Origin: Bacteroidales bacterium
GTDB lineage: Bacteria; Bacteroidota; Bacteroidia; Bacteroidales; UBA932
Direction of reading: 5' to 3'
DNA length: 64,000 bases
NCBI GenBank assembly: GCA_017429765.1
Contig: JAFROJ010000074.1
Location: 6,649-70,648 of the forward strand
Positions 2-61,498 of the stretch are shown here, piece after piece. Each line of letters begins with the position of its first letter. Position 1 is the stretch's first letter. A program made the translations under genes and the position numbers. Under the pieces are notes generated by a model. It was not told the DNA's origin. It worked only from the letters and a program-made list of their open reading frames with translations, and ran no database searches.

Positions 2-913
2 TCCTCCATCGAGGGACAGTCCAGGGCCTCCAATGTCGAGGAACTCATCAACAGCGCCGCCCGTTTTGTCGAGGAGCGTCGTGATGAGTACCTCCAAGGC
101 CTGATAGCGGACGGCACGATCGAGGATGAGTCGGAGGTGGAGTACCCGGTTGTGACCCTCGGGGATTTCCTCGAGAATATATCCCTTCTCTCGAATGTCG
201 ACATGGAGAGCGAGGAGGACACAATGAACAGGATAGCCTTGATGACAGTCCATTCCGCCAAGGGTCTGGAATTCCCCTATGTGTTCATCTCGGGGCTTGA
301 GGAGAACCTTTTCCCTTCCGGCGGCATGCTGACCTCGCTCGCCGACATCGAGGAGGAGAGACGTCTCATGTACGTCGGGATGACCAGGGCGAAGAAAGCC
401 CTCTACCTCTCTTTCGCCGGCACCAGGATGCGTAACGGCAAAAGGGAGTCCAATTCCCCCAGCCGTTTCATCAGGGAGATTGACTCGTCGTTCATCGCCA
501 ATCCTCTCAGGGAGGAGGTCTCGTTCGCGGATGACGATGAAGACGATTTCGGTTTCAGGAGACCTTTCAGGGGCTTCGGTTCCGGCGGCGTCCGTCATTT
601 CCCCTCTCCCCAAAGAGTCATCCCTTCACCAAAGAAAGATATTCCTTCACCCCAAAAGACCCTGTCCCCGGCCCCGTTGACGAGGGATGCCTTGAGAAAC
701 AGGCCCTTGCCCCCGAAGATTCCGGACTCGGAATTCATCCCTGTCCCCATGACGGAACTCAGGGAGGGACAGCGCGTCGAGCACAACCGCTTCGGCTTCG
801 GGAAAATCATCCAGATCACGGGAAGGGTTCCCGATTTGAAGGCCAAAATCGTTTTTGACGATTATGGTGAGAAGATTTTGTTGCTCAAATATGCGAAAAT
901 TCGACTTGAATAG
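2..913 (+). CDS. uvrD: ATP-dependent DNA helicase UvrD/PcrA family, C-terminal part (5' truncated by window)
   Basis: Frame is open from base 2. SF1 motifs LMTVHSAKGLEF and EEERRLMYVGMTRA; C-terminal Tudor-like domain GQRVEHNRFGFG. Confidence 0.93.
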   Translation, partial: SSIEGQSRASNVEELINSAARFVEERRDEYLQGLIADGTIEDESEVEYPVVTLGDFLENISLLSNVDMESEEDTMNRIALMTVHSAKGLEFPYVFISGLEENLFPSGGMLTSLADIEEERRLMYVGMTRAKKALYLSFAGTRMRNGKRESNSPSRFIREIDSSFIANPLREEVSFADDDEDDFGFRRPFRGFGSGGVRHFPSPQRVIPSPKKDIPSPQKTLSPAPLTRDALRNRPLPPKIPDSEFIPVPMTELREGQRVEHNRFGFGKIIQITGRVPDLKAKIVFDDYGEKILLLKYAKIRLE

Positions 914-949
914 TTGCTTTTAGTCGAAAATGACTATATTTAGGTCGAA

Positions 950-988
950 ATGTTAAAACGTTATGCCCATAAGCGTCATCATACCTGA
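950..988 (+). CDS. Histidine leader peptide MLKRYAHKRHHT (12 aa, not in ORF track)
   Basis: ATG TTA AAA CGT TAT GCC CAT AAG CGT CAT CAT ACC TGA: 3 His codons, the last two adjacent, directly upstream of an attenuator and hisD. Confidence 0.85.
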   Translation: MLKRYAHKRHHT

Positions 989-1061
989 CCCTCAAGGTCT
1001 GGTAATGTTTGGTGTGTAAGATTCGCATCGGCTTGCCAGACATGGTGAGCCGGTTTTTTTT
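980..1061 (+). promoter_or_regulatory. Ribosome-mediated transcription attenuator (his-type)
   Basis: Three alternative hairpins. Protector 980-990/996-1007; antiterminator GTCTGGTAA 997-1005 with TTGCCAGAC 1033-1041; terminator CGGCTTGCCA 1029-1038 / TGGTGAGCCG 1043-1052 followed by T8 (1054-1061). Confidence 0.85.
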
Positions 1062-1093
1062 GCCGGGTGATAACGAGAATAATAGATCGAGGC

Positions 1094-2362
1094 ATGAGAA
1101 TATTTGTTGAACCAGACAAACGGCAATGGAAGTACCTGTCCAGTCGTGTGACACGGGAGGACTCCATGCTGGAGTGGCGTGTCTCCACTATTCTCGAGAG
1201 AATCAAGAAGGGAGGCGACACCGCTTTGAAAGAGGTGATCAATGAGGTGGAAAGCTTCCTCCCCACGGAGTTGAAGGTCTCTGAGACTGAGTTCGAGACC
1301 GCCAGAAGGAAAGTGCCTGAGGATCTGAAGGAGGCCATCAACGCCGCCGGGAGACTCGACGCTTTCCATCGGCTGGAGGTCCCCGGGGAGGTGGAGTGGA
1401 CCGACCAAATAGGCGTGACCTGCCGTCGCCGCTTCCTTCCTGTGAGGAGGGTTGGGTTGTATATTCCCGAAGGAGCCGCTCCTTTGTTCTCCTTCGTGCT
1501 GATGCTGGGAGTCCCTTCCATGATCGCGGGCTGCCCCGAGAGGGTTATCTGCACCCCTCCGTCCAGTCACGGGACAGTGGATCCGTCCATCCTGTACGCC
1601 GCCTCGGTCTGCGGCATCAAGGACGTTTTCAAGATCGGGGGGGCGCAGGCTATCGCCGCTATGGCCTACGGCACGAATATTATCAGCAAGGTTGACAAGA
1701 TATTCGGCCCCGGCAACAGTATCGTCGCGAAAGCCAATGGAATAGTGAGCAAGGAGGGTGTGGCCGTCGATCTTCCGGCCGGCCCATCCGAGCTGATGGT
1801 GCTTTCGGACGAGAGCGCCAATGTCACTTTCATGGCGGCGGATCTCCTGTCGCGGGCGGAGAACGGGCCGGACAGCCAGGTGGTCCTGCTGTGCGAGAGT
1901 GTCACGACCGCGAGGCGTGTGATCCAGGAGATGGAGACGCTGAAAGGTAAGCTTCCAAGGAAAGACATAGTGGAAGCCGCGTTGGCCGAGAGCAGGATAA
2001 TAGTGTTCGGGAATATCGAGGACAGGATCGCTTTCGCCAACCTTTACGCCCCCGGGCGCCTGATCCTGGCCGTGGAGAACCCCGAGGAAGTGGCGTTGAG
2101 GATAGAGGCGGCCGGAAGCGTTTTCCTTGGGCACTATTCTCCGGACAGCGCCGGAGACTACGTCTGCGGAACCAATCAAATCCTGCCTTCAGGAGGTCAA
2201 GCCACAGCTTGGAGCGGTGTTGGGGTGGAGAGTTTCATGCGAGCCGTCACTTACCAGTCATTGACCAAGGAAGGTTTGGCTTCCCTGTCGGGAACCATCA
2301 TCACGATGGCGGAGGCGGAGATGTCGCAAGCCAGGGCGGAGACGGTGAAAATCAGGTTATAG
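1094..2362 (+). CDS. hisD: Histidinol dehydrogenase homologue with substituted active site (probable pseudoenzyme)
   Basis: HisD motifs GAQAIAAMAYGT, VDKIFGPGN, PAGPSE, GDY are kept. SQAEH->SRAEN, APEHL->APGRL, GTNH->GTNQ, and the C-terminal AH->AR. ATG 1094 preferred over GTG 1067. Confidence 0.9.
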   Translation: MRIFVEPDKRQWKYLSSRVTREDSMLEWRVSTILERIKKGGDTALKEVINEVESFLPTELKVSETEFETARRKVPEDLKEAINAAGRLDAFHRLEVPGEVEWTDQIGVTCRRRFLPVRRVGLYIPEGAAPLFSFVLMLGVPSMIAGCPERVICTPPSSHGTVDPSILYAASVCGIKDVFKIGGAQAIAAMAYGTNIISKVDKIFGPGNSIVAKANGIVSKEGVAVDLPAGPSELMVLSDESANVTFMAADLLSRAENGPDSQVVLLCESVTTARRVIQEMETLKGKLPRKDIVEAALAESRIIVFGNIEDRIAFANLYAPGRLILAVENPEEVALRIEAAGSVFLGHYSPDSAGDYVCGTNQILPSGGQATAWSGVGVESFMRAVTYQSLTKEGLASLSGTIITMAEAEMSQARAETVKIRL

Positions 2363-2426
2363 GAAAAAATTCTTTACTTTCTTGAGAAAAAAAACGACAA
2401 ATAATTGTTCGTATCAAAAGAATTCG

Positions 2427-2434
2427 TATATTTG
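2427..2434 (+). promoter_or_regulatory. Bacteroidota sigma-A -7 box
   Basis: TATATTTG matches TAnnTTTG; TTG at 2405-2407 lies 19 nt upstream. Confidence 0.7.
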
Positions 2435-2438
2435 AGGT

Positions 2439-2510
2439 GAAGTTTTTCATAGTTTAAGTTTAGGTTAAGTAGCGGAGCGATCGCAGTGACTGCGATTGCT
2501 CCGTGTTTTT
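2439..2510 (+). ncRNA. Candidate ~70-nt small RNA
   Basis: Own promoter, an AU-rich unstructured 5' half (GAAGTTTTTCATAGTTTAAGTTTAGGTTAAG), a 14-bp terminal hairpin with U-tail, and no ORF. The 5' end is estimated. Confidence 0.65.
2473..2510 (+). terminator. Intrinsic terminator
   Basis: CGGAGCGATCGCAG-TGA-CTGCGATTGCTCCG followed by TGTTTTT. Confidence 0.85.
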
Positions 2511-2657
2511 ATGCCATCCGTCGCGCTGGAAACAGAAATTCTTGTTTTCGCGCGATGTTTTTCTTTTTCCCTCGATTTTTTCTGTTTTGTCTCCCTAGAT
2601 TCGCGGAAGGTCGGCCTGGCGGCCGCCCTTAACCAATTGACAATGAAACTATAAACT

Positions 2658-3755
2658 ATGAAAGCTTTTGTTCGAATTATCAGGGTGGCGTTCATGACGC
2701 TCATGGCCCTTTCCCTGGTCGCTTCCTGCAACAAGATCCCGTCTGACTCAGGCCAGGGGACCCTGCGATGGAGTCTCTCCCCTGACGTCCTGACCAGATC
2801 CCCTCTGGAGCTGCCTGACACTGATTCTTTCAGGCTCAAGGTCGTCAACTCCGCGAATGTGGTACTTTATGAGGGGAGGTACGGGGACTCGCCGGAATCC
2901 ATGCTTGTGAATCCCGGCACTTACACTGTCAGTGTTGTCTCCAGGTTGTTCGAGACCCCGGAGTTCGACGCTCCGCAGTTCGGCGACGAGCAGGTGGTCG
3001 TGGTGCAGGCCGGGTCTGAGACGAGCGCCCGCCTCGAGTGTTCCCAACTCAACTCCGGGCTGCGTCTGAGATTCGACCGGGATTTCGGGGAGACCTATCC
3101 TGGCCGGCTGCTCTTCGTGGACTCGCCGGAAGGCGGCCTGTCCTATTCCCCATCTGAGTCCAGGACCGGTTTCTTCAAGCCAGGCAATGTCTCGATATCG
3201 ATGAGGGACGGCACCGCCACCACTCCCTTGCTGACACGGAATCTCTCCGCCAGGGAGATCCTGACCATAGGGATAACTTGCCCCTCGGGGGGCGGTCAAG
3301 GGACATCCCAGGGAGGCTCGCTTTCAATCAGCGTGGACACCTTGAGGACCTGGACCGAGGAGGAATACCAGATAGGCTCCCAAGGTCAGGGTGAGGCCGG
3401 GACAACCCCCGGGAGGGCCTATGGGGTCTCCCAGGTCAAGGATCACGCCGGAGAGAAAGGGGTCTGGGTCGTGGGCTATATAGTCGGGGGAGACCTGTCC
3501 TCCGGACAGAACGGGATCAAGTTCGAGGGCCCCTTCGAGTCGCTCACTAACATAGCTATAGCGTCCAGGTCCTCGGTGTCTGAGAAAGCCTCCTGCGTCT
3601 CGGTCCAACTGGCGAAGGGGAGCATAAGGGACGAATTGAACCTGGTCCAGAATCCCGGCAACCTTGGCAGGAAGATCTATCTGAAAGGGGACATAGAGGC
3701 GGCGTACTACAGTCTTCCCGGTCTCAAGAACTTGACCGCTTACTCTTTCCAGTGA
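2658..3755 (+). CDS. Lipoprotein, DUF4493-like N-terminus and DUF6359-like C-terminus
   Basis: Lipobox LVASC. C-terminal VWVVGYIVGG...VQLAKGSIRDELNL...GRKIYLKGDIEAAYY resembles DUF6359; assignment from recall. Confidence 0.65.
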   Translation: MKAFVRIIRVAFMTLMALSLVASCNKIPSDSGQGTLRWSLSPDVLTRSPLELPDTDSFRLKVVNSANVVLYEGRYGDSPESMLVNPGTYTVSVVSRLFETPEFDAPQFGDEQVVVVQAGSETSARLECSQLNSGLRLRFDRDFGETYPGRLLFVDSPEGGLSYSPSESRTGFFKPGNVSISMRDGTATTPLLTRNLSAREILTIGITCPSGGGQGTSQGGSLSISVDTLRTWTEEEYQIGSQGQGEAGTTPGRAYGVSQVKDHAGEKGVWVVGYIVGGDLSSGQNGIKFEGPFESLTNIAIASRSSVSEKASCVSVQLAKGSIRDELNLVQNPGNLGRKIYLKGDIEAAYYSLPGLKNLTAYSFQ

Positions 3756-3789
3756 CATCAATCTCATTATAAACAGAAATAACTTGCTG

Positions 3790-4971
3790 ATGAAAAACAT
3801 TCTCATTCTGGCGACTCTCTCTGTCGCCTTCCTATGCCCTTTCCGGGCATATTCCCAAGACAGGCCCCGGGCTGTCGAGCTCGGTCTCGGAGGCTCTGCC
3901 ATCAATCACACGAGGACAGTTGTCTCGAATTTCCACCAGACAGCCAGTGGAAACTATGTGTTCTCGTTGGAGCAGAAACAATTCTATGGCGGAGTCAACC
4001 TGTATTCCGCTTTCGAGCTGAAAGATTGGCTCTATCTCGATTTACAGGGTACTTTCGGATCGGCGACTTATTATGACGCGGGCGAGAGGAAGCGCGGTTT
4101 CTCTTTCATGGCCGGCCCGGGAGTCCAGTTCCGCCCTTTCACATGGAGCGAGTGGGTGAGTCCTTTCCTCCGGCTCGGCGTTAACTACTACCGGAAGAAT
4201 TTCCCCACGTGCTATTTCGGACGCTTCGAGGGGGATGTCACAAAAGAGTCGGAGTGGAGGGCGGAGGACGCCTGGAACAAGGGCTTCACCTTCGACACCC
4301 GCTCCTATGTTCCTTTGACGGCTGGAGTCGGCCTTGTGGGCTGGCTCGGCGACAGGATAGGTGTCAAGATTGAGGGGGACTACATGAGATCCCTCGGCGT
4401 GAAAGGGGCCAATTTCGCGATGGGGACAGCCGGACTCGTGTACCGGATCGGAGGGAAGAGTAAGAGACCCTTGACTGAGCCCGCGAGAGTCGTGGAGAAG
4501 GTCGTGGAGAAAGAGGTTGTGAGAGAGGTCCCTGTCGAGAAAGTCAAGGAGGTCGTCAAGGAGATTGTCAAGGAGGTCCCATTCGAGAAGACCCTTGCCG
4601 AGCTCATGGACAACGTCACCTTTGATTTTGACAAGGCTGACATCACTCCGGGAAGCGAGGCTGTCCTGGACGAGGTCGCCAAGGTGATCCTGATGTTCCC
4701 GGAGAGCAGGTTCCTGATCTGCGGGCACACGGACGCCAAGGGAGACGAAAGGTACAACGAGAGGTTGTCCGAGGCCCGGGCTAAGGCCGTTCGGGACGCT
4801 CTTGTGGAGAGAGGGGTTCCTGAGTCGATGCTATGTCACAGGGGGTTCGGGAAGCGGGCCGCCCTGGTGCCAAGAGACGCGGACGATGAGTTGAGGCGCG
4901 GCGACAGGAAGGTAGTGATTGAGCCCGTGACATGGGAACCTTTGTGGAAATACTTGAAAAACAACGATTAA
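3790..4971 (+). CDS. OmpA family outer membrane protein (beta-barrel plus peptidoglycan-binding domain)
   Basis: Signal peptide, aromatic-rich beta strands, V/E/K-rich linker, and VTFDFDKA...GHTDAKGDERYNERLSEARAKAV. Confidence 0.9.
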   Translation: MKNILILATLSVAFLCPFRAYSQDRPRAVELGLGGSAINHTRTVVSNFHQTASGNYVFSLEQKQFYGGVNLYSAFELKDWLYLDLQGTFGSATYYDAGERKRGFSFMAGPGVQFRPFTWSEWVSPFLRLGVNYYRKNFPTCYFGRFEGDVTKESEWRAEDAWNKGFTFDTRSYVPLTAGVGLVGWLGDRIGVKIEGDYMRSLGVKGANFAMGTAGLVYRIGGKSKRPLTEPARVVEKVVEKEVVREVPVEKVKEVVKEIVKEVPFEKTLAELMDNVTFDFDKADITPGSEAVLDEVAKVILMFPESRFLICGHTDAKGDERYNERLSEARAKAVRDALVERGVPESMLCHRGFGKRAALVPRDADDELRRGDRKVVIEPVTWEPLWKYLKNND

Positions 4972-4982
4972 ACTTTAAACTA

Positions 4983-7697
4983 ATGAAAAACTTCATCAAA
5001 TTGTCAGCGGCCGCGATTCTGGGAGCCGCGGTGGTGTTGTCATGCACAAGGCTGGACGTGACTCTTCCTGAGGGACCGAGGGGAGAGCAGGGAATCCAGG
5101 GTGAGTCGGGAGTCGCGGGGAAGACCGCCTACGAGGTCTGGAAGGAATATATCGCCTCAGGCGATGTCGATGACCCCTCAGGTGACGGAGGGAAATGGGA
5201 TCCTGGCAGGAACACTGTCCATGACTTCTTCACATTCCTGGTCGGGCCGAAAGGCGACGATGGCCAGGACGGCAGGGACGGGAAAGACGGGAAAGACGGC
5301 CGTGACGGTAAGGATGGCCGTGACGGGGAGGACGGCCTGATCCCTTACATCGGCGAGAACGGGAATTGGTTCATCGGGGATGAGGACACGGGAGTCCCGG
5401 CCAGGGGAGACAAAGGTGACAAGGGCGACGGGGGACTGTCCGCCTACGACCTCTGGAAAGAGTCGGTTCTCTCCGAGGAGGGCCTGGTCAATCCCGGGAA
5501 CGGGGTGTACGACCCCGATGAATATCCCTTCTGGCCTGTCGACGCGGTCAGCGAGGCTGATTTCTTCCTCTATCTCCACGGTGTCAAGGGAGATGACGGC
5601 AAGTCCGCCTACGAGCTGTGGAAAGAGTACATATCCTCCGGAGATGTGGAGAATCCGCAGGTCCCCGGGACCATGTGGGATCCTGAGGACAACAGCCTGC
5701 ATGACTATTATGTCTTCCTGACCGGCCCCAAGGGCGATGACGGCCTCATCCCTTACATCGGTGCGAACGGCGACTGGTTCATCGGTGATGTTGACACCGG
5801 AGTCCCGGCCAGGGGACAGGATGGCGCCGATGGCCGGGACGGGACAGACGGTCGTGACGGAACTGACGGTCGTGACGGAACAGACGGGCGTGACGGTCAG
5901 GACGGCAAGGACGGCGCGACCCCCTACATCGGGGCGAACGGCGACTGGTTCATCGGCGATGTGGACACCGGAGTCCCGGCCAAGGGACAGGACGGTGCCG
6001 ACGGAAAAGACGGTTTTGACGGAAAAGACGGCGCTGACGGCGCTGATGGAAAAGACGGCGCGGACGGCAAATCGGCCTATGAGATCTGGAAAGAGGATGT
6101 CCTTTCCGAGTCAGGTCTGGCTAATCCAGGGAACGGAGTCTATGATGTTTCCGAATACCCCAAATGGCCCGCGACGGCGGTCTCACTCGCCGACTTCTGG
6201 CTGTATCTGAGGGGACGGGACGGAGCGGACGGGCAGAACGGCTCGGACGGTACCGCCCACGCCCTCGCCGACACGGCCTATGTCGACAGGGTCGATCCCG
6301 GGATGTACAATGTCTCGCCCGTGATAGCTCTTGGGAAGACCATCGGCGGAACCGTTGAGTATGAATATGTTAACCCTGTCTCAGGAGGCGCGGCCTTCAT
6401 AGTCACCGGCCCGGGTCCTGTGATCATTCCGGATTGCGAGGTAGTGTTCAAGGACATGTCAGGAAGCAAGACCTACACCAAGAGATCCGACTCCCAGGGA
6501 TATGTCTACCTGACAAGGGAGGAGCTTCCTGAGTGGTCCGAGGGACTTCCCAGCGCAAAGGACACTCCCGGGAACCTTTCATCTGGTGTGAGGCCTGTCT
6601 CGTTCAAGTACGGCTCGACCGAGGTCACGGACCAGTCGAGGATCGCCGCCACTTGCAAGGTACCCTATAGAGTGGGTCTTTCCGTGGTGACGGAAAGAGG
6701 CTCGATCTATGACTATGCCGCCCACGCCGCTTTCCGTGTCTACAGGATCGTGGAGGGAGTCACCGAGAGCGAGGCGTTCATCAATTACAGGAATGTGGTC
6801 TCGCATTGGAATTATAACTCATCGTCAAGGGGCTATTGGCCCACCGTCAACTCCGCGTTCAGATATTACCGGAAAGGCGCTGACATCCTTCTCTCCAGGA
6901 TCTCGTCAGGCTATTCTCTTGACTCCGATCTGTCATCGCTGGAGGGGGACGACCTGACCGATTGGTTCTCGGACCTTAACCACATCTGCGGCCAGAAGAA
7001 TTACGACTACGCCATGCAAAGGGCGAAGGTCGCCCGGGCGAGGGTCAGGAACGGGGAGGTGTCCTGGTTCAGGGCCGGGTTCGGTGACGGCCCGGAGCCC
7101 TCGGTCGTGGGTGTGTACGACCTGCTGCTGAGGTATGACGGCGGGGTCGCGGCTTCCGGCGCCGGCGAGCTTCTCCCGGACTACGGCCTGAAGGTCTCCG
7201 ACTCGGCCAGAGAGGTTATGAATCCCCCGTATTACACTATGCCTCAGGGAGTTCAGGGTGAATACGTGTGGGACTCCGGCCACACCAGCCTGACCCTTGG
7301 CCTGTCGGACATCGACGCCTTGAAGTCCGTCACGACCTACTCCGGAGGCGATTGGGACGCGGAGGGCGTCAGGTACAATTTCGAGGCGGGGACTTTCGGG
7401 GAACGTTACAGCAACGGGGCCTCGACCAAATTCACCGTGAGCGGGAAGTACTCCGGCACGACCATCAACAGCACAGTCGGTTTCCCTTTGTACGAGTCCT
7501 TGGACCTGAAGGATGTCTATGACGGGTTCAACCTCTCTGTGGCGGACTTCGTGGACGGGTCGGTGATGCTTGGTGGTTTCTCGGGGAAATTCGCGACGAA
7601 TCTCCCGAATGTTGACTCCGCCTCCGATGCCACCGCGTCTGCTTTCGGCAGCGCCCTTTCTGTCGATGTGAAAAACGTCTCCAATATAGGAGAATAA
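4983..7697 (+). CDS. Large collagen-like repeat surface lipoprotein (904 aa)
   Basis: Lipobox VLSC (Cys21). Eight Gly-X-Y blocks are interleaved with repeated modules AY(E/D)xWKE and PYIGxNGxWFIGD. Start ATG 4983. Confidence 0.85.
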   Translation: MKNFIKLSAAAILGAAVVLSCTRLDVTLPEGPRGEQGIQGESGVAGKTAYEVWKEYIASGDVDDPSGDGGKWDPGRNTVHDFFTFLVGPKGDDGQDGRDGKDGKDGRDGKDGRDGEDGLIPYIGENGNWFIGDEDTGVPARGDKGDKGDGGLSAYDLWKESVLSEEGLVNPGNGVYDPDEYPFWPVDAVSEADFFLYLHGVKGDDGKSAYELWKEYISSGDVENPQVPGTMWDPEDNSLHDYYVFLTGPKGDDGLIPYIGANGDWFIGDVDTGVPARGQDGADGRDGTDGRDGTDGRDGTDGRDGQDGKDGATPYIGANGDWFIGDVDTGVPAKGQDGADGKDGFDGKDGADGADGKDGADGKSAYEIWKEDVLSESGLANPGNGVYDVSEYPKWPATAVSLADFWLYLRGRDGADGQNGSDGTAHALADTAYVDRVDPGMYNVSPVIALGKTIGGTVEYEYVNPVSGGAAFIVTGPGPVIIPDCEVVFKDMSGSKTYTKRSDSQGYVYLTREELPEWSEGLPSAKDTPGNLSSGVRPVSFKYGSTEVTDQSRIAATCKVPYRVGLSVVTERGSIYDYAAHAAFRVYRIVEGVTESEAFINYRNVVSHWNYNSSSRGYWPTVNSAFRYYRKGADILLSRISSGYSLDSDLSSLEGDDLTDWFSDLNHICGQKNYDYAMQRAKVARARVRNGEVSWFRAGFGDGPEPSVVGVYDLLLRYDGGVAASGAGELLPDYGLKVSDSAREVMNPPYYTMPQGVQGEYVWDSGHTSLTLGLSDIDALKSVTTYSGGDWDAEGVRYNFEAGTFGERYSNGASTKFTVSGKYSGTTINSTVGFPLYESLDLKDVYDGFNLSVADFVDGSVMLGGFSGKFATNLPNVDSASDATASAFGSALSVDVKNVSNIGE
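5073..6250 (+). repeat. Intragenic modular repeats: Gly-X-Y tracts plus three knob types
   Basis: PYIGxNGxWFIGDxDTGVPA x3 (near 5340, 5748, 5922), also similar at DNA level. AYExWKEYIxSGDV x2 and AYxxWKExVLSExGLxNPGNGVY x2. Confidence 0.9.
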
Positions 7698-17895: not shown

Positions 17896-17967
17896 TACTG
17901 GGTAGGAGAATCGAACTCCTATTGCAAGATTGAGAATCTTGAGTACTAACCGTTATACGAACCCAGC
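17896..17967 (-). tRNA. tRNA-Glu (anticodon CTC)
   Basis: Cloverleaf: GCTGGGT/ACCCAGT acceptor, CAAGA-TTCTCAA-TCTTG anticodon arm, AGGAG-TTCGATT-CTCCT T arm. CCA is not encoded. Confidence 0.95.
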
Positions 17968-44201: not shown

Positions 44202-47200
44202 TTAGAAGGTAACCTGCACACCACATGAATAAGTCTTCATCAGAGGGTTCACACGGCCCCATGACACGCCCGACCCGTCGTTCATCTCAGGATCGATGCC
44301 GTTCTGACGGTTGTGGTTGATGATATCCAACAGGTTGTTGGTGGCGGCGTACACCCTGACCTTGTCGATGGAGATCTTCTGGGTCAGGTTCTTGGGGATG
44401 GTGTACCCGAAGGTGATATTCTTCAGACGGAGGTAAGCCATGTTGAGGATGTACTTGGTCTGAGGATAGTAGTTGTAACGACCCGTGGTGATGATGTTGG
44501 AGCTGATGGTTCCCTGGTTTCCGGCGCCTCCGTAAAGACGCGGGTGATCGGCGCTCTGGTCAACATTGCCGCTGTTGATCTGGTCGAGGGACACATAGTT
44601 CATCTGGCCCTTGTAGATGGCGTCGGCGCCTCTGGAATAAGGCATCACGAACTGCGAGACGGTCCAGATGTTCCTCTTGCCGACTCCCTGGAGATAGATG
44701 TCAAGGTCGAAGCCCTTCCATTCGCCGCCGATACGCAGCGAGTACTGGTACCTCGGTGTGGTGTTGCCGATCTTGACAAGGTCGCCGTGGTCTTCCTCGG
44801 TTCCCTTGCCCCAGTCGATGACGCCGTCACCGTTCTGGTCGACGAACTTGATGTCGCCGGGCCCGTAGTGGAAGTTGCCGTTCTCGAGTTTCTTCTGGCT
44901 AGCGGAGTTGGCGACGTCGGTCGCTGACTCGAAGTAGCGGTCGGTCTCGAATCCCCAGATGTCACCGTAGGTCTTGCCGGTGTAGGTGGTGTTCAGCTGC
45001 ATCGCGTCGTTCTTCCAATAGGTGACCTTGGTGGTGTAGTCGGAGAGGTTGGCGATGGCGTAGAGGTTGAACTGGCCGAAGTTGTGGTGCCAGTCGACAT
45101 TGAGCTCCCAACCGCGTGAGCGGAGCGAGCCGGCGTTCTCGTAAGCCGCGCTGGTTCCGAGGACGGCGGGCATTGTCTGGCCGGGGGCGAGCATGCCCTT
45201 GGTGTCGCGCTGGAACCAGTCGAAGGTGACGTTGAGGTCGCCCTTGAGGATGCCGAGGTCAACACCGATGTTCGTGGTCGCGAGGGACTCCCAGGTCAGG
45301 TCGGCGGAGACGAGCTTCGGCAGGCCGAAGTAGTCGTATTTGGCGGTGCCGCTACCCATCCAGTACACGGAGTTGCCGTACTTGGTCATGGTCTCGATGA
45401 ACATGTTGGTACCGACTTCCTGGTTGCCGATCACACCGTAGGAGGCGCGGATCTTCGCGTTGCTGACAACGGGCTTGATGGGCTCCCAGAAGCTCTCCTG
45501 GGAGATTCTGTAACCGACGGAGGCTGAAGGGAAGAACGCCCAGCGGCTGTTGGCCGGGAACTTGGAGGAACCGTCGTAACGGCCGTTAAGCTCGACGAGG
45601 ATCTTGTCGGCGTAGTTGTAGTTGATCCTTCCGAAGAAACCGGCGGAGCCCCAGTGCGTGTGCCTGTGGGTGTAGCTGTAGAAGGTGGGGGTCAGCGCGA
45701 GCTCGGGGAGGGCGGGATCCATGACGTCATGGTTCTCGTAGTAGAGGTACTCATATTCCGACTCGTCGACGTTGGTACCGGCCATGATCTGGAAGTTGTG
45801 CTTCTGGGCCGGGCTGAACTCGTACTTGGCGTAGAGGTTGGCGGTGTAGCCGTTGGTGAACGAGCGGGATGTCTCCACGAAGCTGGTGGTCACGAGGGTC
45901 GAGCTGGGAGCCTGGATGTTACCCCAGGTGTTGTAGACGGTGAGGGGGACTCCGACGCCCTTGTAACGGGTGGTGTAGTTCGTGAAAGTGAAGTCTCCGT
46001 TGAGGGTCAGGCCCTTGGCGAGAGTCGCCGTGGCGAACCCGCCGAGACGGAGGTTGGCGCCGCGGTCGTAGGCGTCGCCCGCCTGCTTGCGGTAGCCGAT
46101 GATGTTACGGGCGTCGATCCCGTTGATGGTTCCGTAGGGGCCGAAGTTGGAGGGCCAGCGCCAGACATAGGCCAGGCCCATTCCGCGGGTGTACGGATAG
46201 TCGTATTCCTTGTTCATGTAGTTGACCCTGGCGCCGACATTCAGCCACTTCTTGACCTGGGAGTTGACATTGACGGTCACATTGTACTTGGTGCGGGTGT
46301 CGGGGTTGAACTTCATGATGCCCTGCTGCTTGTCCATACCGATGGACATGTAGTAGTTGGTCTTGCCGGACGAGCCCTGGATGGAGAGGGTGTGGTTCTG
46401 CGATGGGGTGGCGTTGTTGAACACGATCCCGACCACGTCCCAGTCGGCCACATAGGAGCCGGACCCGTTGGCGTTGAAATAGTAGTCGTCGTCGAGGACC
46501 ATCTCGCGGTACCCGGACTTGCCGCCGTGCTTCTTCTCCCAAGTGGCGACCGCGTTGATGAACTTGGGATCGTCGAAGTAGATTCCGAAGAGCTCGGACT
46601 CGACTCCCATGTTCTTGTTGACCTCGTTGAACGCTGTGACCTGCTTGCTCAGGATGTCGTAGTCGGCGAGGTTGGTCGCGGAGCTCCAACCGAAGTTGTT
46701 GGAGTAGCGGATGACGGCCTTCTCCGAGGTCTTGCCGGCCTTGGTCGTGATCATCACGACACCGAAGGCGGCCCTTGTACCGTAGATGGAGGTGGAGGCG
46801 GCGTCCTTGAGGACAGAGATGTTGTCAATGTCCTGGGGGTTAAGGTAGGAGATGTTGTCGATCGGAACACCGTCGACGATGTACAGGGGCTTGGAAGTGC
46901 CGCTGTTAGAGAGGGTTCCGATGCCGCGGATGGTGATCGTCGGATCGGCGTTGATGTCACCGTTGATGTTGATGACGGTGAGGCCGGGCACGGCTCCCTG
47001 GAGGGCCTTGCCCAGGTTGGTCTCAGACTTGGACTCGAGGGTCTTGGTCACGTCCACTGTGGAGACGGCGCCGGTGAGGTTGGCCTTCTTCTGTGTGCCG
47101 TAACCGACGACCACGACCTCGTCGAGGTACTTGGAGTCTTCCTGCAGCGTGACGGTCATCCCGTTCCTGGCGGCGACGACGACGGTCTCATAGCCAAGGA

Positions 47201-47474
47201 AGGAGATCTCCAGCTGGGCGCCCTCGGCGACAGCGATGGAGAAAGAACCGTCCGAGGCGGTGACAGCCCCGCGGTTGGTTCCCGGGATCATCACGCTGGC
47301 TCCGATGACCGGTGAGCCCTGGGCGTCGACCACCTTTCCGGTGATCGTCCTCTGCTGGGCCTCGGCCGCGAGATCGGTTTTTGATACCTCAGCCCGCAGG
47401 CTCCCGAACGAAAGGAAGCCCGTGAGCAGGATCATGAGAAAAGCCGGAACTCTTGAAACATGATTCTTTTTCAT
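44202..47474 (-). CDS. susC: SusC/RagA TonB-dependent transporter
   Basis: LDEVVVVGYG, SVLKDAASTSIYG.RAAFGV.MITTK and RYDGSSKF motifs; C-terminal Phe. Confidence 0.97.
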   Translation of the reverse strand: MKKNHVSRVPAFLMILLTGFLSFGSLRAEVSKTDLAAEAQQRTITGKVVDAQGSPVIGASVMIPGTNRGAVTASDGSFSIAVAEGAQLEISFLGYETVVVAARNGMTVTLQEDSKYLDEVVVVGYGTQKKANLTGAVSTVDVTKTLESKSETNLGKALQGAVPGLTVININGDINADPTITIRGIGTLSNSGTSKPLYIVDGVPIDNISYLNPQDIDNISVLKDAASTSIYGTRAAFGVVMITTKAGKTSEKAVIRYSNNFGWSSATNLADYDILSKQVTAFNEVNKNMGVESELFGIYFDDPKFINAVATWEKKHGGKSGYREMVLDDDYYFNANGSGSYVADWDVVGIVFNNATPSQNHTLSIQGSSGKTNYYMSIGMDKQQGIMKFNPDTRTKYNVTVNVNSQVKKWLNVGARVNYMNKEYDYPYTRGMGLAYVWRWPSNFGPYGTINGIDARNIIGYRKQAGDAYDRGANLRLGGFATATLAKGLTLNGDFTFTNYTTRYKGVGVPLTVYNTWGNIQAPSSTLVTTSFVETSRSFTNGYTANLYAKYEFSPAQKHNFQIMAGTNVDESEYEYLYYENHDVMDPALPELALTPTFYSYTHRHTHWGSAGFFGRINYNYADKILVELNGRYDGSSKFPANSRWAFFPSASVGYRISQESFWEPIKPVVSNAKIRASYGVIGNQEVGTNMFIETMTKYGNSVYWMGSGTAKYDYFGLPKLVSADLTWESLATTNIGVDLGILKGDLNVTFDWFQRDTKGMLAPGQTMPAVLGTSAAYENAGSLRSRGWELNVDWHHNFGQFNLYAIANLSDYTTKVTYWKNDAMQLNTTYTGKTYGDIWGFETDRYFESATDVANSASQKKLENGNFHYGPGDIKFVDQNGDGVIDWGKGTEEDHGDLVKIGNTTPRYQYSLRIGGEWKGFDLDIYLQGVGKRNIWTVSQFVMPYSRGADAIYKGQMNYVSLDQINSGNVDQSADHPRLYGGAGNQGTISSNIITTGRYNYYPQTKYILNMAYLRLKNITFGYTIPKNLTQKISIDKVRVYAATNNLLDIINHNRQNGIDPEMNDGSGVSWGRVNPLMKTYSCGVQVTF

Positions 47475-51421: not shown

Positions 51422-54400
51422 ATGAAAATACACGGTAAAAACCTGTCTGCGACTCTGCTCCCGGGTGCGAGAGCGGTTGTCGCGGTTGTTTGCCTCCTGT
51501 TCTGCGCGGGTCTATGGACTCCGTCCAGCGCCCAGCGGGGGAGGGAGATTACCGGTACGGTAGTCGATGAGAACAACCTTCCAATGCCTGGGGTGACCGT
51601 CATGGTCGATGGTACGGTAAACGGTACGATGACTACCGAAGCCGGTGTCTTCGTCTTGACGAACGTCCCTGCCAACGCGACCCTCGTCATCTCCTGCATC
51701 GGTTACACGACGCAGAGGATCGAGGTCGGCACTCGAAACAATTTCTCCATCAAGCTGGTCCCGGACGCCGAGATGCTTGAGGAGACGGTCGTCGTCGCCT
51801 TCGGTCAGCAGAAGAAAGCGACGGTGACCGGCGCTATCGCGACTGTCTCCTCGACAGACTTGCGCAAGACCACCACCACCCGTCTTGACAACGCTCTCGC
51901 CGGACGTGTCACCGGCCTTACCTCCATGCAGAACGGCGGAGGTCAGCCCGGACGTGACGGTGCCACGATGTATCTTCGTGGAGCCGCGACCACTAACGGC
52001 AAGAGTCCTCTGGTCATCGTCGACGGTGTCGAGCGCGAGGACGGTATCCGTACCCTCGACATGAACGAGGTCGAGAGCATCTCTGTCCTTAAGGACGCCT
52101 CCGCGACCGGTCTGTACGGAGTACGTGGCGCTAACGGTGTTATCATCATCACCACCCGCCGCGGCCAGAAGGGCAAACCCAACCTGAGCATCTCCTTTGA
52201 CCAGTCGATGTCCCAGTTCACAGTCGAGCCCGACAGGCTTCACTCCTGGGAGTACATGGAACTCCGCAACGAGGCTCTCGTGAACTCAGGCTCCCCGGCC
52301 GCTTATAGCGACGAGGTTATCGCCAAGTTCAAGAACCCTCTCTTCGGCCTCACCGGCAACGAGCCCAACTACGCCGAACTTAAGAAGATGCGCGAGTACC
52401 TGTACTGCGACAACGACTACTACCGCATGATGTTCAAGAAGTTCACCCCCCAGTCCCGTTTCAGCGCCAACCTCAGCGGCGGTACCGACAAGGTGAACTA
52501 CTTCCTCAACATCGGCTACATCCACCAGAACGGTAACCTGAAGACCTTGGGTTACGATGAGCTGGGCTACAACCCCCAGTCCTACATGAACCGTTTCAGC
52601 CTCCGTTCCAACCTGGATTTCCATCTTACCAAGGATCTCACGGTCTCGCTGAACCTCGCTTCCTACACCGAGGATATCAATATGCCGCTCGCGATCGGTA
52701 TGTACGGAGGCGATGAGAACTGGATGATGCGTGACCTTATCTACCAGGCCACCTGTATCACCCCTATCTCCGTCGGCCCCACCACCATCAGTGAGTTCGG
52801 AGTTGACGACGGGGCTGTCGTCACCCACTCATGGATGGACCGTACCGCTTACGAGTGTATCAACTACCGTGGTTTCCAGACGGACACCAAGAAGAACCTC
52901 AACTCCACGTTGTCCGCCAACTACGACCTCAGCAGCCTTATCACCAAGGGCCTGTCGATCAACGGATCGGTCTCTTACGATACTTACAATATGGGTATTC
53001 TCTACGGTCAGAAGTCAGTCCAGATGTATCTCCCTGTCGTGGACTACACCAACGACACCATGACCTACGCCACCCACTCGCAGAACCCTTCACCGCTCAG
53101 CCTCGGCCACACCCGCAGCTCCAACTATGTGATCTACGGACAGGCCGCCATCAATTACGCTCGCAGGTTCGCAGACAAGCATGACGTCACCGCCATGGTC
53201 ACCGCCTACCGCCGTTATTGGGAGTCGACTGGCGCTGACATCCCTTACAACCTTATCGGTTCCGCGGCCCGTGTCACCTACGGCTATGACGACCGTTACC
53301 TCTTCGAGGCCAACATGGGTTACAACGGATCGGAGCAGTTCGCCCCGGCCAACCGTTTCGGTTTCTTCCCCTCAGCCTCAGTCGGCTGGATCGCCTCGAA
53401 CGAGAAATTCCTCAAGAACAACAACTTCCTGACCTGGCTCAAGTTCCGCGGTTCCTATGGTCTCGTGGGTAATGACTCCCAGGGTGGTAACCGCTTCCTT
53501 TACATGGACCACATCTCCGTCGGGGGTAATCAGGACCGTGGTGTCAGCGGACTTGGCAGCAGAACCATCTCCGAGGGCCTGCTCGGTAACAAGGAGCTCC
53601 AGTGGGAGGTCGCCAAGAAGATGGACCTCGGTGTCGAGATCGGTATCTTCGAGGATTTGAGGATCAACTTCGACTACTTCACCGAGAACCGTGACCACAT
53701 CCTTATCTCCCGTAAGACCATCCCCTCTTTCCAGGGTTTGAGTCTGAGTTACATCCCTAGGGTCAACATGGGAGTTGTCGAGAACCACGGTTTCGAGGTC
53801 GAGCTCAAGTACAGCCACGATTTCAAGAACGGTTTCGCCATCAACCTCGGCGGTAACATGGGCTTCAACGACAACAAGGTCATAGAGTACGACGAGGTTA
53901 ACAGAGGAGACGCTTACGCCTATCCGCTCCGCACCGAGGGCTACCGCCTTGGCCAGAGTTGGGGTTACCTGATCGACTGGGACAGCCCCGGTCATGGCTA
54001 CTTCACCTCACAAGAGGAACTTGACCAGTACCTGTCACACACCACGTACGGCTTCGGCGTCCCGAGGGTCGGTGACTTCGTCTACAAGGATGTGACCGGC
54101 GACGGCGTTGTCGATGACAAAGACCTCAGCCCGATAGGTTTTTCCAGCTCCATCCCCGGACTCAACTACGCCTTCAACCTGGGCGCCCAGCTCAAGAACT
54201 TCGATTTCAACATCCTGTTCACCGGACTCGGCCGCTACAATTCCAACAACTGGAGCACCGCCCAGAATGTCGCTGAATACATCTACCAGGGAACGTACTA
54301 CGAATTCCACAAGTCCGCTTGGACAGAGGAGCGTTACAAGAATGGCGAGAAGATCACATGGCCCGCGCTTTCCACGGCCAAGACCACTAGCCACCAGGCT

Positions 54401-54643
54401 AACGACTTCTTCATCCAGAGCCGCGCTTTCCTGCGTCTGAAGAACGTTGAGTTAGGCTACAACCTCCCTCAGAAGTCTCTCCAGAAGGTCGGCGTCAAGG
54501 GAATGAGGATCTACGCCTCCGGACAGAACCTCCATTACTGGACTAAGTATAACTTGGGCAGTCATATCGATCCCGAGCACAACGACCACATCGGTTATCC
54601 TATCCCTAAGACCTATATGCTTGGGTTAAACATCAACTTCTAA
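51422..54643 (+). CDS. susC: SusC TonB-dependent transporter (PUL copy 1)
   Basis: LEETVVVAFG, SVLKDASATGLYGVRGANGVIIITT and GYNGSEQF motifs; C-terminal Phe. Confidence 0.97.
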   Translation: MKIHGKNLSATLLPGARAVVAVVCLLFCAGLWTPSSAQRGREITGTVVDENNLPMPGVTVMVDGTVNGTMTTEAGVFVLTNVPANATLVISCIGYTTQRIEVGTRNNFSIKLVPDAEMLEETVVVAFGQQKKATVTGAIATVSSTDLRKTTTTRLDNALAGRVTGLTSMQNGGGQPGRDGATMYLRGAATTNGKSPLVIVDGVEREDGIRTLDMNEVESISVLKDASATGLYGVRGANGVIIITTRRGQKGKPNLSISFDQSMSQFTVEPDRLHSWEYMELRNEALVNSGSPAAYSDEVIAKFKNPLFGLTGNEPNYAELKKMREYLYCDNDYYRMMFKKFTPQSRFSANLSGGTDKVNYFLNIGYIHQNGNLKTLGYDELGYNPQSYMNRFSLRSNLDFHLTKDLTVSLNLASYTEDINMPLAIGMYGGDENWMMRDLIYQATCITPISVGPTTISEFGVDDGAVVTHSWMDRTAYECINYRGFQTDTKKNLNSTLSANYDLSSLITKGLSINGSVSYDTYNMGILYGQKSVQMYLPVVDYTNDTMTYATHSQNPSPLSLGHTRSSNYVIYGQAAINYARRFADKHDVTAMVTAYRRYWESTGADIPYNLIGSAARVTYGYDDRYLFEANMGYNGSEQFAPANRFGFFPSASVGWIASNEKFLKNNNFLTWLKFRGSYGLVGNDSQGGNRFLYMDHISVGGNQDRGVSGLGSRTISEGLLGNKELQWEVAKKMDLGVEIGIFEDLRINFDYFTENRDHILISRKTIPSFQGLSLSYIPRVNMGVVENHGFEVELKYSHDFKNGFAINLGGNMGFNDNKVIEYDEVNRGDAYAYPLRTEGYRLGQSWGYLIDWDSPGHGYFTSQEELDQYLSHTTYGFGVPRVGDFVYKDVTGDGVVDDKDLSPIGFSSSIPGLNYAFNLGAQLKNFDFNILFTGLGRYNSNNWSTAQNVAEYIYQGTYYEFHKSAWTEERYKNGEKITWPALSTAKTTSHQANDFFIQSRAFLRLKNVELGYNLPQKSLQKVGVKGMRIYASGQNLHYWTKYNLGSHIDPEHNDHIGYPIPKTYMLGLNINF

Positions 54644-54657
54644 AAATGGAGATGAAT

Positions 54658-56592: not shown

Positions 56593-56623
56593 TAGTTCCC
56601 TAACCTTATTAATTGAATCTGAT

Positions 56624-59600: not shown

Positions 59601-59719
59601 GCGGACAGAACCTGTTCTGCTTCGACAAGCTTCCCGCGGACATGCCGGTCGAAGGCAACAATGTCACCGCCCTTCCGGTCTTCCGTATGTACCGTATCGG
59701 AGTTGACCTGTCCTTCTAG
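56624..59719 (+). CDS. susC: SusC TonB-dependent transporter (PUL copy 2)
   Basis: ITLLKDGASQAIYGVRGANG.LVINTKRG motif; C-terminal Phe. Confidence 0.95.
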   Translation: MMKKHIIIAAALMLLGSAFASAQSDFAVSGTVKDVYGNPLPGVIVSANNKALYITDKNGQYTATAGSSDELTFALVGFKKQTVKASSDMQVVLEDDAHDLSEVINLGYSKVSREDLSDAVSTVSGATLGKSLNTRLQQTLSGRLSGLTTIESTFEPTYEELSMYVRGLSTVHGGAAGVVIDGVLYDSYSHDILYRISPEEVESITLLKDGASQAIYGVRGANGLLVINTKRGTPGKLKVGVNVSETVEQPVDVMHQFDSYEYATMRNQAAYNDGRGKNVFFSESALDNFKKGTNTDYYPNTDWADLLMRKASNLQRVAIDAIGGGERVQYFTTMNLIHQGSFWNTDTDKYKTDNEKVRLNFRSNIDVMVNSWIGLFMNLAGSVVKAHTPNSSVAYNNTIYEYMAFMPPTVYGPVTPEIMGSDGETVIQPAGDVISTVNMVNSPYGLLNRSGYNNATNTNIYGQGGLQFDLSFLTPGLWAKASVGYLSYITATMTTTQSYKRVYRDDDWSKLSFTQLGTTIDGTLGYGKGTALYGYMSYKGEAGYTRDFGKHHINANAYAMYQSFIDQTGNAAATYDYRRIYTGVEALYNYDHRYALHLTTGYSASDYFPRSTRFIWTPGVSAAWIASNESFMKETLPWLSLFKVRGSYAITGNDSTGFGRYAYKDQVTSVQGGNISWLRYYTNESVYGNDGLVPEKIHKANIGIDLGLGNQFTASFDVFKEKMNNGLAQSTASIPSYQGISLGSFPVLNMSQYENKGWELSVGYNKRFNEDWGVFINGHLGYNKNKIIYVGESEKGEDYAYRYRTEGFPYGQTWGYLVDWSNGNGLFNFQDEIDSHATYSFGTPRLGDIKYQDLNKDGVIDDKDQAPIANGSLPRYSFGLDLGFTWKSFEVSALFQGVADYYRNYSYLYGYHTVRDGFYTESMRNAWTSEKWLNGETIDYPALSTASTTNTQTSDYFYRNASFVRLKNAQIAYKLPKRFCDSIGAGTAKIYLGGQNLFCFDKLPADMPVEGNNVTALPVFRMYRIGVDLSF

Positions 59720-59737
59720 CCTGACCTAATCTCAAAA

Positions 59738-61471: not shown

Positions 61472-61498
61472 TCGGCAAACCTTTAAATGTTAATGATT

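Follow-up and report, generated by a model that had tools for sequence, protein, structure and literature searches.

An orphan histidinol dehydrogenase relative with a replaced active site, left by a deleted his operon in uncultured Bacteroidales and constrained long after its apparent catalytic loss

We analysed a 64,000-nucleotide stretch of the genome of an uncultured Bacteroidales bacterium (assembly GCA_017429765.1, contig JAFROJ010000074.1, positions 6,649 to 70,648 of the forward strand), here called the window, and in it an orphan gene of 422 amino acids derived from hisD, located at 1094-2362 on the forward strand. The product keeps the fold of histidinol dehydrogenase (HisD), while three of the four zinc ligands, the E326/H327 dyad, H367 and three contacts to nicotinamide adenine dinucleotide (NAD) are replaced. 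On balance, we favour the reading that this gene is the lone survivor of a deleted his operon, and that it encodes a dead HisD derivative which was long maintained for a non-catalytic, fold-dependent role and is now being lost. The long-term data reject a plain pseudogene and the population data reject an indispensable gene; a gene that was long kept and is now weakly selected or being lost fits both.

The gene is a single open frame of 422 codons with an ATG start and a TAG stop. Its product is matched end to end by Pfam Histidinol_dh (PF00815; 443.7 bits against a cut-off of 27) and is matched by the NCBIfam model TIGR00069 hisD (425.3 bits against 243.8), and its best solved relatives are the HisD of Elizabethkingia (6AN0) and of E. 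coli (1K75). In HisD, His327 is the general base and Glu326 activates the water (PMC11382572), Gln259, His262, Asp360 and His419' hold the zinc that positions the substrate, and NAD+ is contacted by Tyr130, Gly133/134, Ser/Thr135, Gln188, Asn211, Phe/Tyr213 and Ser237 (PMC5585171). Residues were called from a HMMER alignment to E. coli HisD (1k75) and from a 160-sequence alignment, with E. coli numbering. The zinc ligands Q259, H262 and H419 are changed to R (window position 1853), N (1862) and R (2333), the catalytic dyad E326/H327 to G/R (2054-2059) and H367 to Q (2177), all on the forward strand. The four zinc positions 259, 262, 360 and 419 read R, N, D and R, and the last surviving ligand, D360, is residue D355 of the window protein (codon 2156-2158, forward strand), which is Asn in many conspecific alleles. 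E326, H327 and H367 are invariant in 154 canonical homologues. Beyond the changes listed by the original prediction, three further NAD contacts are altered (G133E, T135A and Y213I), and Y130, G134, Q188, N211 and S237 are retained (contact list from PMC5585171). In total, nine of the 19 ligand-contact residues named in the literature are changed, against none in a canonical sister protein; and at the 77 columns invariant in the 154 canonical homologues the window protein differs 10 times and the canonical controls not once.

Judged from these residues, the protein would be catalytically dead and cannot be a normal HisD: it has no general base and no water-activating Glu, it keeps one of the four zinc ligands, and its contacts to the NAD pyrophosphate and adenine are damaged. 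In HpsN, a member of the same superfamily, replacing the equivalent Glu by Ala (E318A) costs 580-fold in kcat/KM and replacing the equivalent His (H319A) 240-fold (PMC11382572). It is scarcely credible that the gene encodes a still-working histidinol dehydrogenase, or that its sequence is a product of sequencing or assembly. The protein is annotated as histidinol dehydrogenase by the criteria of hidden Markov models (HMMs), but the dyad and three of the four zinc ligands are absent, equivalent mutations in the family cut activity more than 100-fold (PMC11382572), and no pathway to supply histidinol was found in the 64-kb window or by the protein search described below. Nor is the gene an assembly artefact, because four or more independent metagenome contigs, as well as one NCBI protein, have the identical sequence. 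On these points the original prediction, made from the letters of the window, holds up well: the intact HisD-family frame passes both family cut-offs, every substitution that it listed and the retention of D360 are recovered by two alignments, and the assembly errors that it had allowed for are contradicted by the independent contigs.

Among 159 retrieved homologues, the altered catalytic signature occurs only in the window protein and in one other cluster (P0053), which represents the same orphan gene in a second species and shares 67% amino acid identity with the window protein. A search seeded with P0053 returned no additional cluster with an altered catalytic signature, and a scan of metagenome contigs for the degenerate pattern YAPGRLILAV gave two matches, both unrelated to HisD, and no further dead-HisD lineage. 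The finding is limited so far to these two uncultured species.

The gene order of relatives explains why this gene stands by itself. Close relatives (P0002-P0004, 77-80% amino acid identity) and the outgroup metagenome-assembled genomes (MAGs) GCA_017429185.1 and GCA_017548985.1 share one full his-operon arrangement, in which nqrFEDCBA on the opposite strand and uvrD are followed by leader, hisG, hisD, hisCB, hisH, hisA, hisF, hisIE, a DUF4493/DUF6359 gene, an OmpA-like gene, a gene for a large protein and an AmiA-like gene. In the window species (L008-L011) and in the second species (P0053; L001-L003), the order is reduced to uvrD, leader, the hisD-like gene, DUF4493 and OmpA. Positions 137-913 (forward strand) hold the 3' end of a gene for a UvrD/PcrA-type helicase, which flanks the his locus upstream throughout the clade; its Pfam families were assigned from the complete copy in L008. 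The stretch 914-1075 of the window aligns with the leader that precedes hisG in relatives. Downstream, 2363-2436 (forward strand) is the scar of a deletion that removed hisCB-hisH-hisA-hisF-hisIE, as the sequence from about 2388 onward follows hisIE in relatives; window 2388-2467 is 97.5% identical (blastn) to L004 10459-10539, which is located after hisIE (L004/L005). Because gene order, leader alignment and post-hisIE alignment all match the relatives, the window gene is the orthologous hisD itself, not a paralogue, left behind when hisG and hisCB-IE were excised. The identity of the deletion junctions in the two lineages could not be shown, since divergence between them is too great and the terminator of the sister species has a further deletion. 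When all his-operon proteins of the relatives were compared with the 64-kb window by tblastn, only the gene at 1094-2362 was matched, which agrees with the earlier statement that no other his gene is adjacent, and none other was found in the 21-kb loci either. Among 5.8 billion proteins, the relatives' HisCB found one cluster at 92% and then none above 74%, and the 92% cluster adjoins a canonical, can1-type hisD; this points indirectly to the absence of a HisCB attributable to the two orphan-bearing species, as evidence from protein databases that does not cover whole genomes. A scan of GTDB genome contigs with the window protein returned only distant proteobacterial and spirochaete HisD. In the relatives' operons (L004 6117-7769; L028 11299-12954), hisC is fused to the imidazoleglycerol-phosphate dehydratase (IGPD) part of hisB in a gene of about 550 codons' worth of protein (Pfam Aminotran_1_2 + IGPD).

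Upstream of the gene, the window keeps the parts of a his leader. The putative Bacteroidetes-type -7 promoter box of the former operon, TATATTTA (935-942, forward strand), is conserved in five of five aligned lineages, and we take it to match the Bacteroides consensus TAnnTTTG. A leader peptide frame at 950-988 (forward strand), MLKRYAHKRHHT and a stop, contains three His codons, two of which form the tandem CAT CAT directly before the Thr codon and the stop. The consensus of four leaders computed with RNAalifold has a conserved hairpin at 973-1015 (forward strand), pairing the His-codon stretch with a downstream G/U-rich segment. A scan of the single sequence places an intrinsic terminator at 1027-1062 (forward strand), with a 12-bp stem and a GACA loop (1027-1054) followed by T8 (1055-1062); in the RNAalifold consensus the terminator helix has 11 bp, and its 3' arm varies among relatives by G-U/G-C and U-A/U-G changes that preserve pairing. 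Within the first hairpin, the segment GGTCTGG is the complement of CCAGAC on the 5' side of the terminator stem, as read by eye from the sequence; the four leaders show little covariation, and this pairing may be a candidate for the alternative, antiterminator structure of classical attenuators. The corresponding leaders 5' of hisG, each ending in a stop, read MKSFASYHHHHHLAV and MIIKNAHKHHHSLAF in the outgroups, both with a strong terminator, and MLKRSGHKRHYHPTF in the canonical sister lineage. The window leader is poor in His beside the HHHHH and HKHHH peptides that relatives encode, and is comparable to the leader of one relative whose operon is intact. The Rfam model His_leader (RF00514), which is proteobacterial, gave no match to the window at the gathering threshold or at E<=1. 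The His leader attenuators that precede hisG in uncultured Bacteroidales (L028 9013-9136, L030 9009-9138 and L004 3868-3992) have no Rfam family, and we found no experimental test of a his leader attenuator in Bacteroidales in the literature.

The second species allows the loss of the active site to be dated relative to the split of the two lineages. At the seven signature positions, P0053 reads Q, Q, G, R, D, D, R and the window protein R, N, G, R, D, Q, R. The replacements E326G, H327R and H419R are common to both, with the same or same-class codons: both lineages have CCC GGG CGC where canonical genes have CCG GAG CAY, and the Arg at 419 is encoded by AGG/AGA in both, three nucleotide changes away from the canonical CAC. 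Likewise, both have GTC TGY where canonical genes have GCC AGC, and TTT at codon 4 is common to both. Shared derived amino acids join the window protein and P0053 at 8 sites, against 2 and 1 for the alternative quartets. Considering these rare multi-step codon changes together with the identical gene order in both lineages, the inactivating substitutions are shown to have arisen, in all probability, once, before the window species and the sister species split (more than one synonymous substitution per site, dS >1).

Over this distance the gene did not evolve like a pseudogene. By the NG86 method, the window gene and P0053 differ by dS 1.27 and by 0.229 non-synonymous substitutions per site (dN), a ratio (omega) of 0.18; for neighbouring genes in the same comparison, dS is 1.0-1.2 and omega 0.07-0.13. 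A branch test was made with our own GY94/F3x4 codon model on 6 taxa and 422 codons. With one ratio, omega is 0.085 (log-likelihood, lnL, -5899.04); with two ratios, it is 0.065 for the background and 0.122 for the dead-lineage branches (lnL -5894.14), which is the better model (twice the difference in log-likelihood, 2dlnL, = 9.8, p ~0.002). Fixing the foreground omega at 1 lowers lnL to -6010.25, and neutrality on these branches is rejected (2dlnL = 232). Given separate ratios, the window branch has an omega of 0.121 and the P0053 branch 0.110, and the terminal-branch values stay at 0.11-0.15 under all three topologies. On the short stem branch omega runs to its upper bound, with almost only non-synonymous changes, a result that is not significant. 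The two proteins differ in length by one codon, and neither has a stop. Constraint is therefore relaxed about two-fold, yet strong, long after catalysis was lost; because neutrality is rejected, the long history of the gene is not one of mere recent decay.

Three other causes of a low omega were considered and set aside. Recent recombination with a canonical hisD is ruled out, since no near-identical segment appears in sliding windows, in which the proportion of synonymous differences (pS) is uniformly 0.43-0.69. If selection acted only against polarity on downstream genes, amino acids would be left unconstrained, and what lies downstream is a separately promoted candidate FopS-like small RNA (sRNA) and a conserved intergenic region. 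Selection against misfolding alone predicts the rapid fixation of early null alleles, not persistence over dS >1.

The constraint falls on the scaffold more than on the pocket. The AlphaFold2 (AF2) model of the window protein has a pLDDT of 88.4 and a pTM of 0.83, with low confidence only at 363-374, the loop after the former H367; in Foldseek it superposes on 6AN0 with a TM score of 0.93 and on 1KAE with 0.91, showing the four-domain HisD fold. The model is driven by a multiple sequence alignment of canonical HisD sequences and carries little information on the pocket. Where canonical HisD is at least 98% conserved, the window protein is changed at 18 of 123 positions and P0053 at 28; 11 of the changed positions are common to both, where 4.1 are expected (p = 1.5e-4), often with different replacements. 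Taking ligand proximity as the literature contact lists plus or minus 2 residues, and sites at least 90% conserved, the changes of the window protein are enriched near ligand contacts (14/53 against 8/116 elsewhere, p = 0.001), while those of P0053 are more dispersed (17/53 against 23/116, p = 0.12). Nine of the 19 literature ligand contacts are changed in P0053 too, including T135E, N211D and Y213S among the NAD contacts. The pocket looks released, not newly selected, because the replacements at 259, 262, 367, 135 and 213 differ between the lineages; what has been kept appears to be a conserved scaffold around a released pocket, rather than a newly tuned pocket.

This bears on a further possibility, that the protein is a neo-functionalised enzyme whose Arg-rich, metal-free pocket converts a different, probably anionic, substrate, which we regard as rather improbable. 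Three pocket Arg residues were introduced in the window protein (259, 327 and 419), two of them common to the sister lineage; fold and long-term constraint are kept, the stem branch is almost purely non-synonymous (though not significantly so), and the HisD family has already yielded enzymes for other substrates, such as HpsN (PMC11382572). A shared new activity would, however, have to be reconciled with pockets that differ between the lineages (R/Q at 259, N/Q at 262, Q/D at 367, and D/N at 360 among alleles) and with NAD contacts damaged in different ways (G133E, T135A and Y213I against T135E, N211D and Y213S). No replacement general base or acid is seen, whereas HpsN keeps its zinc ligands and the Glu-His dyad (PMC11382572), and null alleles are common.

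Indeed, many present-day strains can clearly do without the gene, because several conspecific null alleles, a frameshift in the sister species and the loss of the attenuator there are all found. In the commonest conspecific allele, the W102 codon (TGG, 1397-1399, forward strand) is turned into a TGA stop by a G>A change at 1399 (L012-L017; Logan runs X1, X2 and X4); this allele also carries F134I, D355N (the last zinc ligand) and T360I, and no synonymous change. In another allele, a run of seven G at 1637-1643 (forward strand) has gained one G (+1), which shifts the frame (P0162 and P0165; contig of run X3), and a third allele has lost 58 bp at 2079-2136 (forward strand) with a frameshift (L018). 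The 90%-identity cluster of the window protein accordingly includes broken versions, P0162 and P0165 being split products.

Several observations weigh against long maintenance for a role. The W102 stop allele occurs in 10 or more contigs drawn from many samples, a null allele is present in each of the four Logan metagenome runs examined (three the W102 stop, one the frameshift), and intact alleles are apparently a minority among the sampled contigs. One allele of the sister species has a +1 A that truncates the C-terminus. Within species, most changes in the hisD-like gene are non-synonymous (N) rather than synonymous (S): in the window species about 5 N : 2 S and the null alleles, against 7 N : 8 S in the flanking genes, and in the sister species 7 N : 5 S, against 10 N : 18 S in the flanks; a comparison of polymorphism with divergence in the style of McDonald and Kreitman was not significant, as polymorphisms are few, and the contrast is suggestive. 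No RNA sequencing run containing the window gene was found. The sister lineage has also lost the attenuator (L001 9770-9928): the leader ATG is gone, CAT CAT has become CAA TAT, and the 3' arm of the terminator and the T-run are deleted. The -7-like box is kept there, and expression of its hisD-like gene would be constitutive, if any. The sister protein is more eroded outside the active site (the 23 of 116 conserved positions given above), and outside the active-site changes the shared derived residues are only Y4F, A166S and I386V, giving no hint of a new interface. Finally, the bulk of the sequence leaves the gene tree unresolved. Nucleotide quartets for hisD are 17:14:15, and the codon model gives lnL -5894.8 for window and P0053 as sisters, -5895.6 for window with canonical and -5901.7 for the third topology, the first two being separated by a dlnL of 0.7; in the flanks, both nqrA (8:0:1) and uvrD (6:3:2) place the canonical species together with the P0053 species (L008, L001, L004).

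Part of this evidence suggests that the gene is simply a functionless relic, a unitary pseudogene in waiting, in which a leftover hisD decays and the window happens to hold a still-intact allele. Such an account would cover the several independent nulls in both species, dominant among the sampled contigs, the lineage-specific erosion of conserved ligand sites with D360N in many alleles, the decayed attenuator of the sister lineage, and an omega about two-fold above that of canonical hisD. We nevertheless think it unlikely, in view of the rejection of omega = 1 on the branches after inactivation. These two branches have accumulated about 0.6 and 1.3 substitutions per codon with no stop and one in-frame codon indel, where by rough arithmetic neutrality would have left tens of stops and indels; and, by our own arithmetic, a neutral phase explains at most the last 0.04-0.07 dS units. 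Recent neutral decay, the alternative named in the original prediction, is accordingly contradicted for the long-term history (omega 0.11-0.18) and partly upheld for the present day, where nulls are common.

The weak resolution of the tree bears on another account, in which an orphan hisD was kept active for histidinol salvage under the His attenuator and was inactivated recently and independently in each lineage. This would explain why hisD alone survived with a His-responsive leader and how a low omega along long branches can go with nulls that segregate at present, and the likelihood of the bulk sequence is compatible with topologies in which the dead lineages are not sisters. It needs, however, 8 positions to have changed in parallel to the identical residue, by the same or same-class codons, including the three-nucleotide change from CAC to AGR at H419, and such parallelism is highly improbable in a neutral terminal phase that was short; we give this account very little weight. 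Because the bulk sequence hardly separates the trees and the flanks favour a different one, the argument for a single origin rests on the rare codon changes and the shared gene order. GC content at third codon positions (GC3) is lower in P0053 (0.65 against 0.73) and distorts distances, and in our reading the pattern reflects a near-trichotomy, shaped at this locus by lineage sorting or by recombination long ago.

Returning to the reading that we favour, a dead HisD derivative long kept and now being lost, we propose the following course of events. In an uncultured Bacteroidales lineage of gut or rumen, the his operon was deleted from both sides, hisG upstream and hisCB-hisH-hisA-hisF-hisIE downstream. 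As the codon analyses show, both copies stayed under strong purifying selection after catalytic death (omega about 0.11-0.14), and the ligand-binding positions drifted independently. The protein may have been kept as a pseudoenzyme, for example as a binding partner or a structural component. In the window species, transcription would still start from the old his promoter and be gated by the His-codon leader and terminator, and the protein would mainly be made when histidyl-tRNA is scarce. The role is probably weak or conditional, with nulls common in both species and the gene in early loss. A bolder version, in which the pseudoenzyme was born with the operon deletion and was kept for millions of years for a fold-dependent, non-catalytic job switched on by histidine starvation via the orphaned attenuator, we put forward tentatively and with some doubt. 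If true, the histidinol dehydrogenase family would gain its first dead enzyme, and an operon relic would have been co-opted instead of lost; we found no paper linking histidinol dehydrogenase and pseudoenzymes.

The idea of a repurposed pseudoenzyme had been raised in the original prediction, and it is supported in part: the gene is orphaned, constrained and not a normal HisD. The comparison of orthologues that it had called for found the same substitutions in a second species with dN/dS of 0.11-0.18, and the structure model retains the HisD fold (pLDDT 88.4, TM 0.91-0.93). The specific roles that it suggested fare worse. A histidinol or NAD sensor, or a metal-free binder with Arg in place of zinc, is at odds with nine of 19 ligand contacts changed in each lineage and with replacements that differ, and a regulatory subunit of the pathway is at odds with the lack, in the window, the 21-kb loci and the protein search, of any other his gene attributable to these species. 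The attenuator that it described as intact is so in the window at the sequence level (leader frame, terminator with T8, and homology to the leader 5' of hisG) and not in the sister lineage, where leader ATG, His codons and terminator T-run are lost; histidine-starvation control as a conserved feature is thus not supported.

The case matters for annotation, evolution and regulation. First, the protein passes every HMM cut-off and public records name it histidinol dehydrogenase, which it cannot be; any metabolic reconstruction of a rumen or gut MAG in which it is counted will be wrong, and a check of catalytic residues would catch it. Second, unlike ordinary bacterial pseudogenes, the gene persisted under purifying selection for more than one synonymous substitution per site after catalysis was lost, and null alleles now segregate in two species. 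Here the birth of a pseudoenzyme, and possibly its death, can be studied, with natural knock-out alleles for asking what, if anything, the protein does. Third, His-codon leader attenuators (HHHHH) 5' of hisG are documented in uncultured Bacteroidales, one of which now precedes a non-enzyme.

The region downstream of the gene holds a candidate FopS-like Bacteroidetes sRNA at 2437-2513 (forward strand), with a conserved upstream region from about 2388 and preceded by TATATTTG. It matches the full RF04319 model, though at 32 bits (E 0.02) it falls short of the gathering score of 56, has a 15-bp terminator hairpin at 2472-2504 with a T-run at its end, and in all relatives is located after hisIE and before the DUF4493 gene. 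In assemblies of gut metagenomes, depth rises over this region from about 7x to 345-973x and many different contigs join, so the candidate would belong to a multicopy family; FopS sRNAs have been described in B. thetaiotaomicron (PMC11697453). Next come a DUF4493/DUF6359 lipoprotein-like gene (2658-3755) and an OmpA-family gene (3784-4971), and downstream of them, at a conserved position, a 921-aa protein (4932-7697, forward strand) with repeated modules and collagen-like GxY repeats (Pfam Collagen, 45 bits). A tRNA gene at 17896-17967 (reverse strand) is the only Rfam match in the window at the gathering threshold. Farther away are a lone SusC-like TonB-dependent receptor (44202-47474, reverse strand) and, at 51422-63118 (forward strand), two tandem SusC/SusD pairs followed by a DUF4959/F5_F8-type-C protein, an architecture of polysaccharide-utilisation loci that fits Bacteroidales.

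Among known systems, the closest is HisD itself (EC 1.1.1.23; PF00815, TIGR00069; 1K75/1KAE, 6AN0, 5VLB-D). The window protein is a full-length match with the same predicted fold and 80% amino acid identity to the HisD of the canonical sister lineage, and its gene has the same genomic position and the same His-leader; it departs from HisD in lacking Q259, H262, H419, E326/H327 and H367, in its altered G133, T135 and Y213, in the absence of accompanying his genes and in the tolerance of null alleles. With the his leader attenuator of enterobacteria (hisL; RF00514) the window leader shares a short His-codon frame, putative alternative hairpins and an intrinsic terminator before the first gene, but it has no Rfam match and only three His codons (two in tandem), and it precedes a dead gene instead of an operon. 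HisZ, a catalytically inactive paralogue of histidyl-tRNA synthetase (HisRS) that regulates short-form HisG, is likewise a dead-enzyme homologue retained by selection and tied to histidine metabolism; HisZ, however, is an ancient, widespread paralogue with HisG as its partner, whereas the window gene is a recent orthologous relic, present in two species, with no hisG at the locus. HpsN, a DHPS-3-dehydrogenase, is a member of the HisD superfamily with a role outside histidine synthesis and illustrates that the fold can be repurposed (PMC11382572). It keeps the octahedral zinc site, the Glu318/His319 dyad, NAD binding and a diagnostic His126 motif (PMC11382572), unlike the window protein, which lacks the dyad and most zinc ligands and is a distant match (151 bits, ~27-28% identity). 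Finally, the window gene resembles the relics that remain after pathway loss in auxotrophs, with an operon lost in a nutrient-rich habitat, an eroded active site, and nonsense and frameshift alleles. Ordinary relics are neutral and quickly deleted; the window gene, in contrast, is intact, with an omega of about 0.12 over dS >1 after catalytic death.

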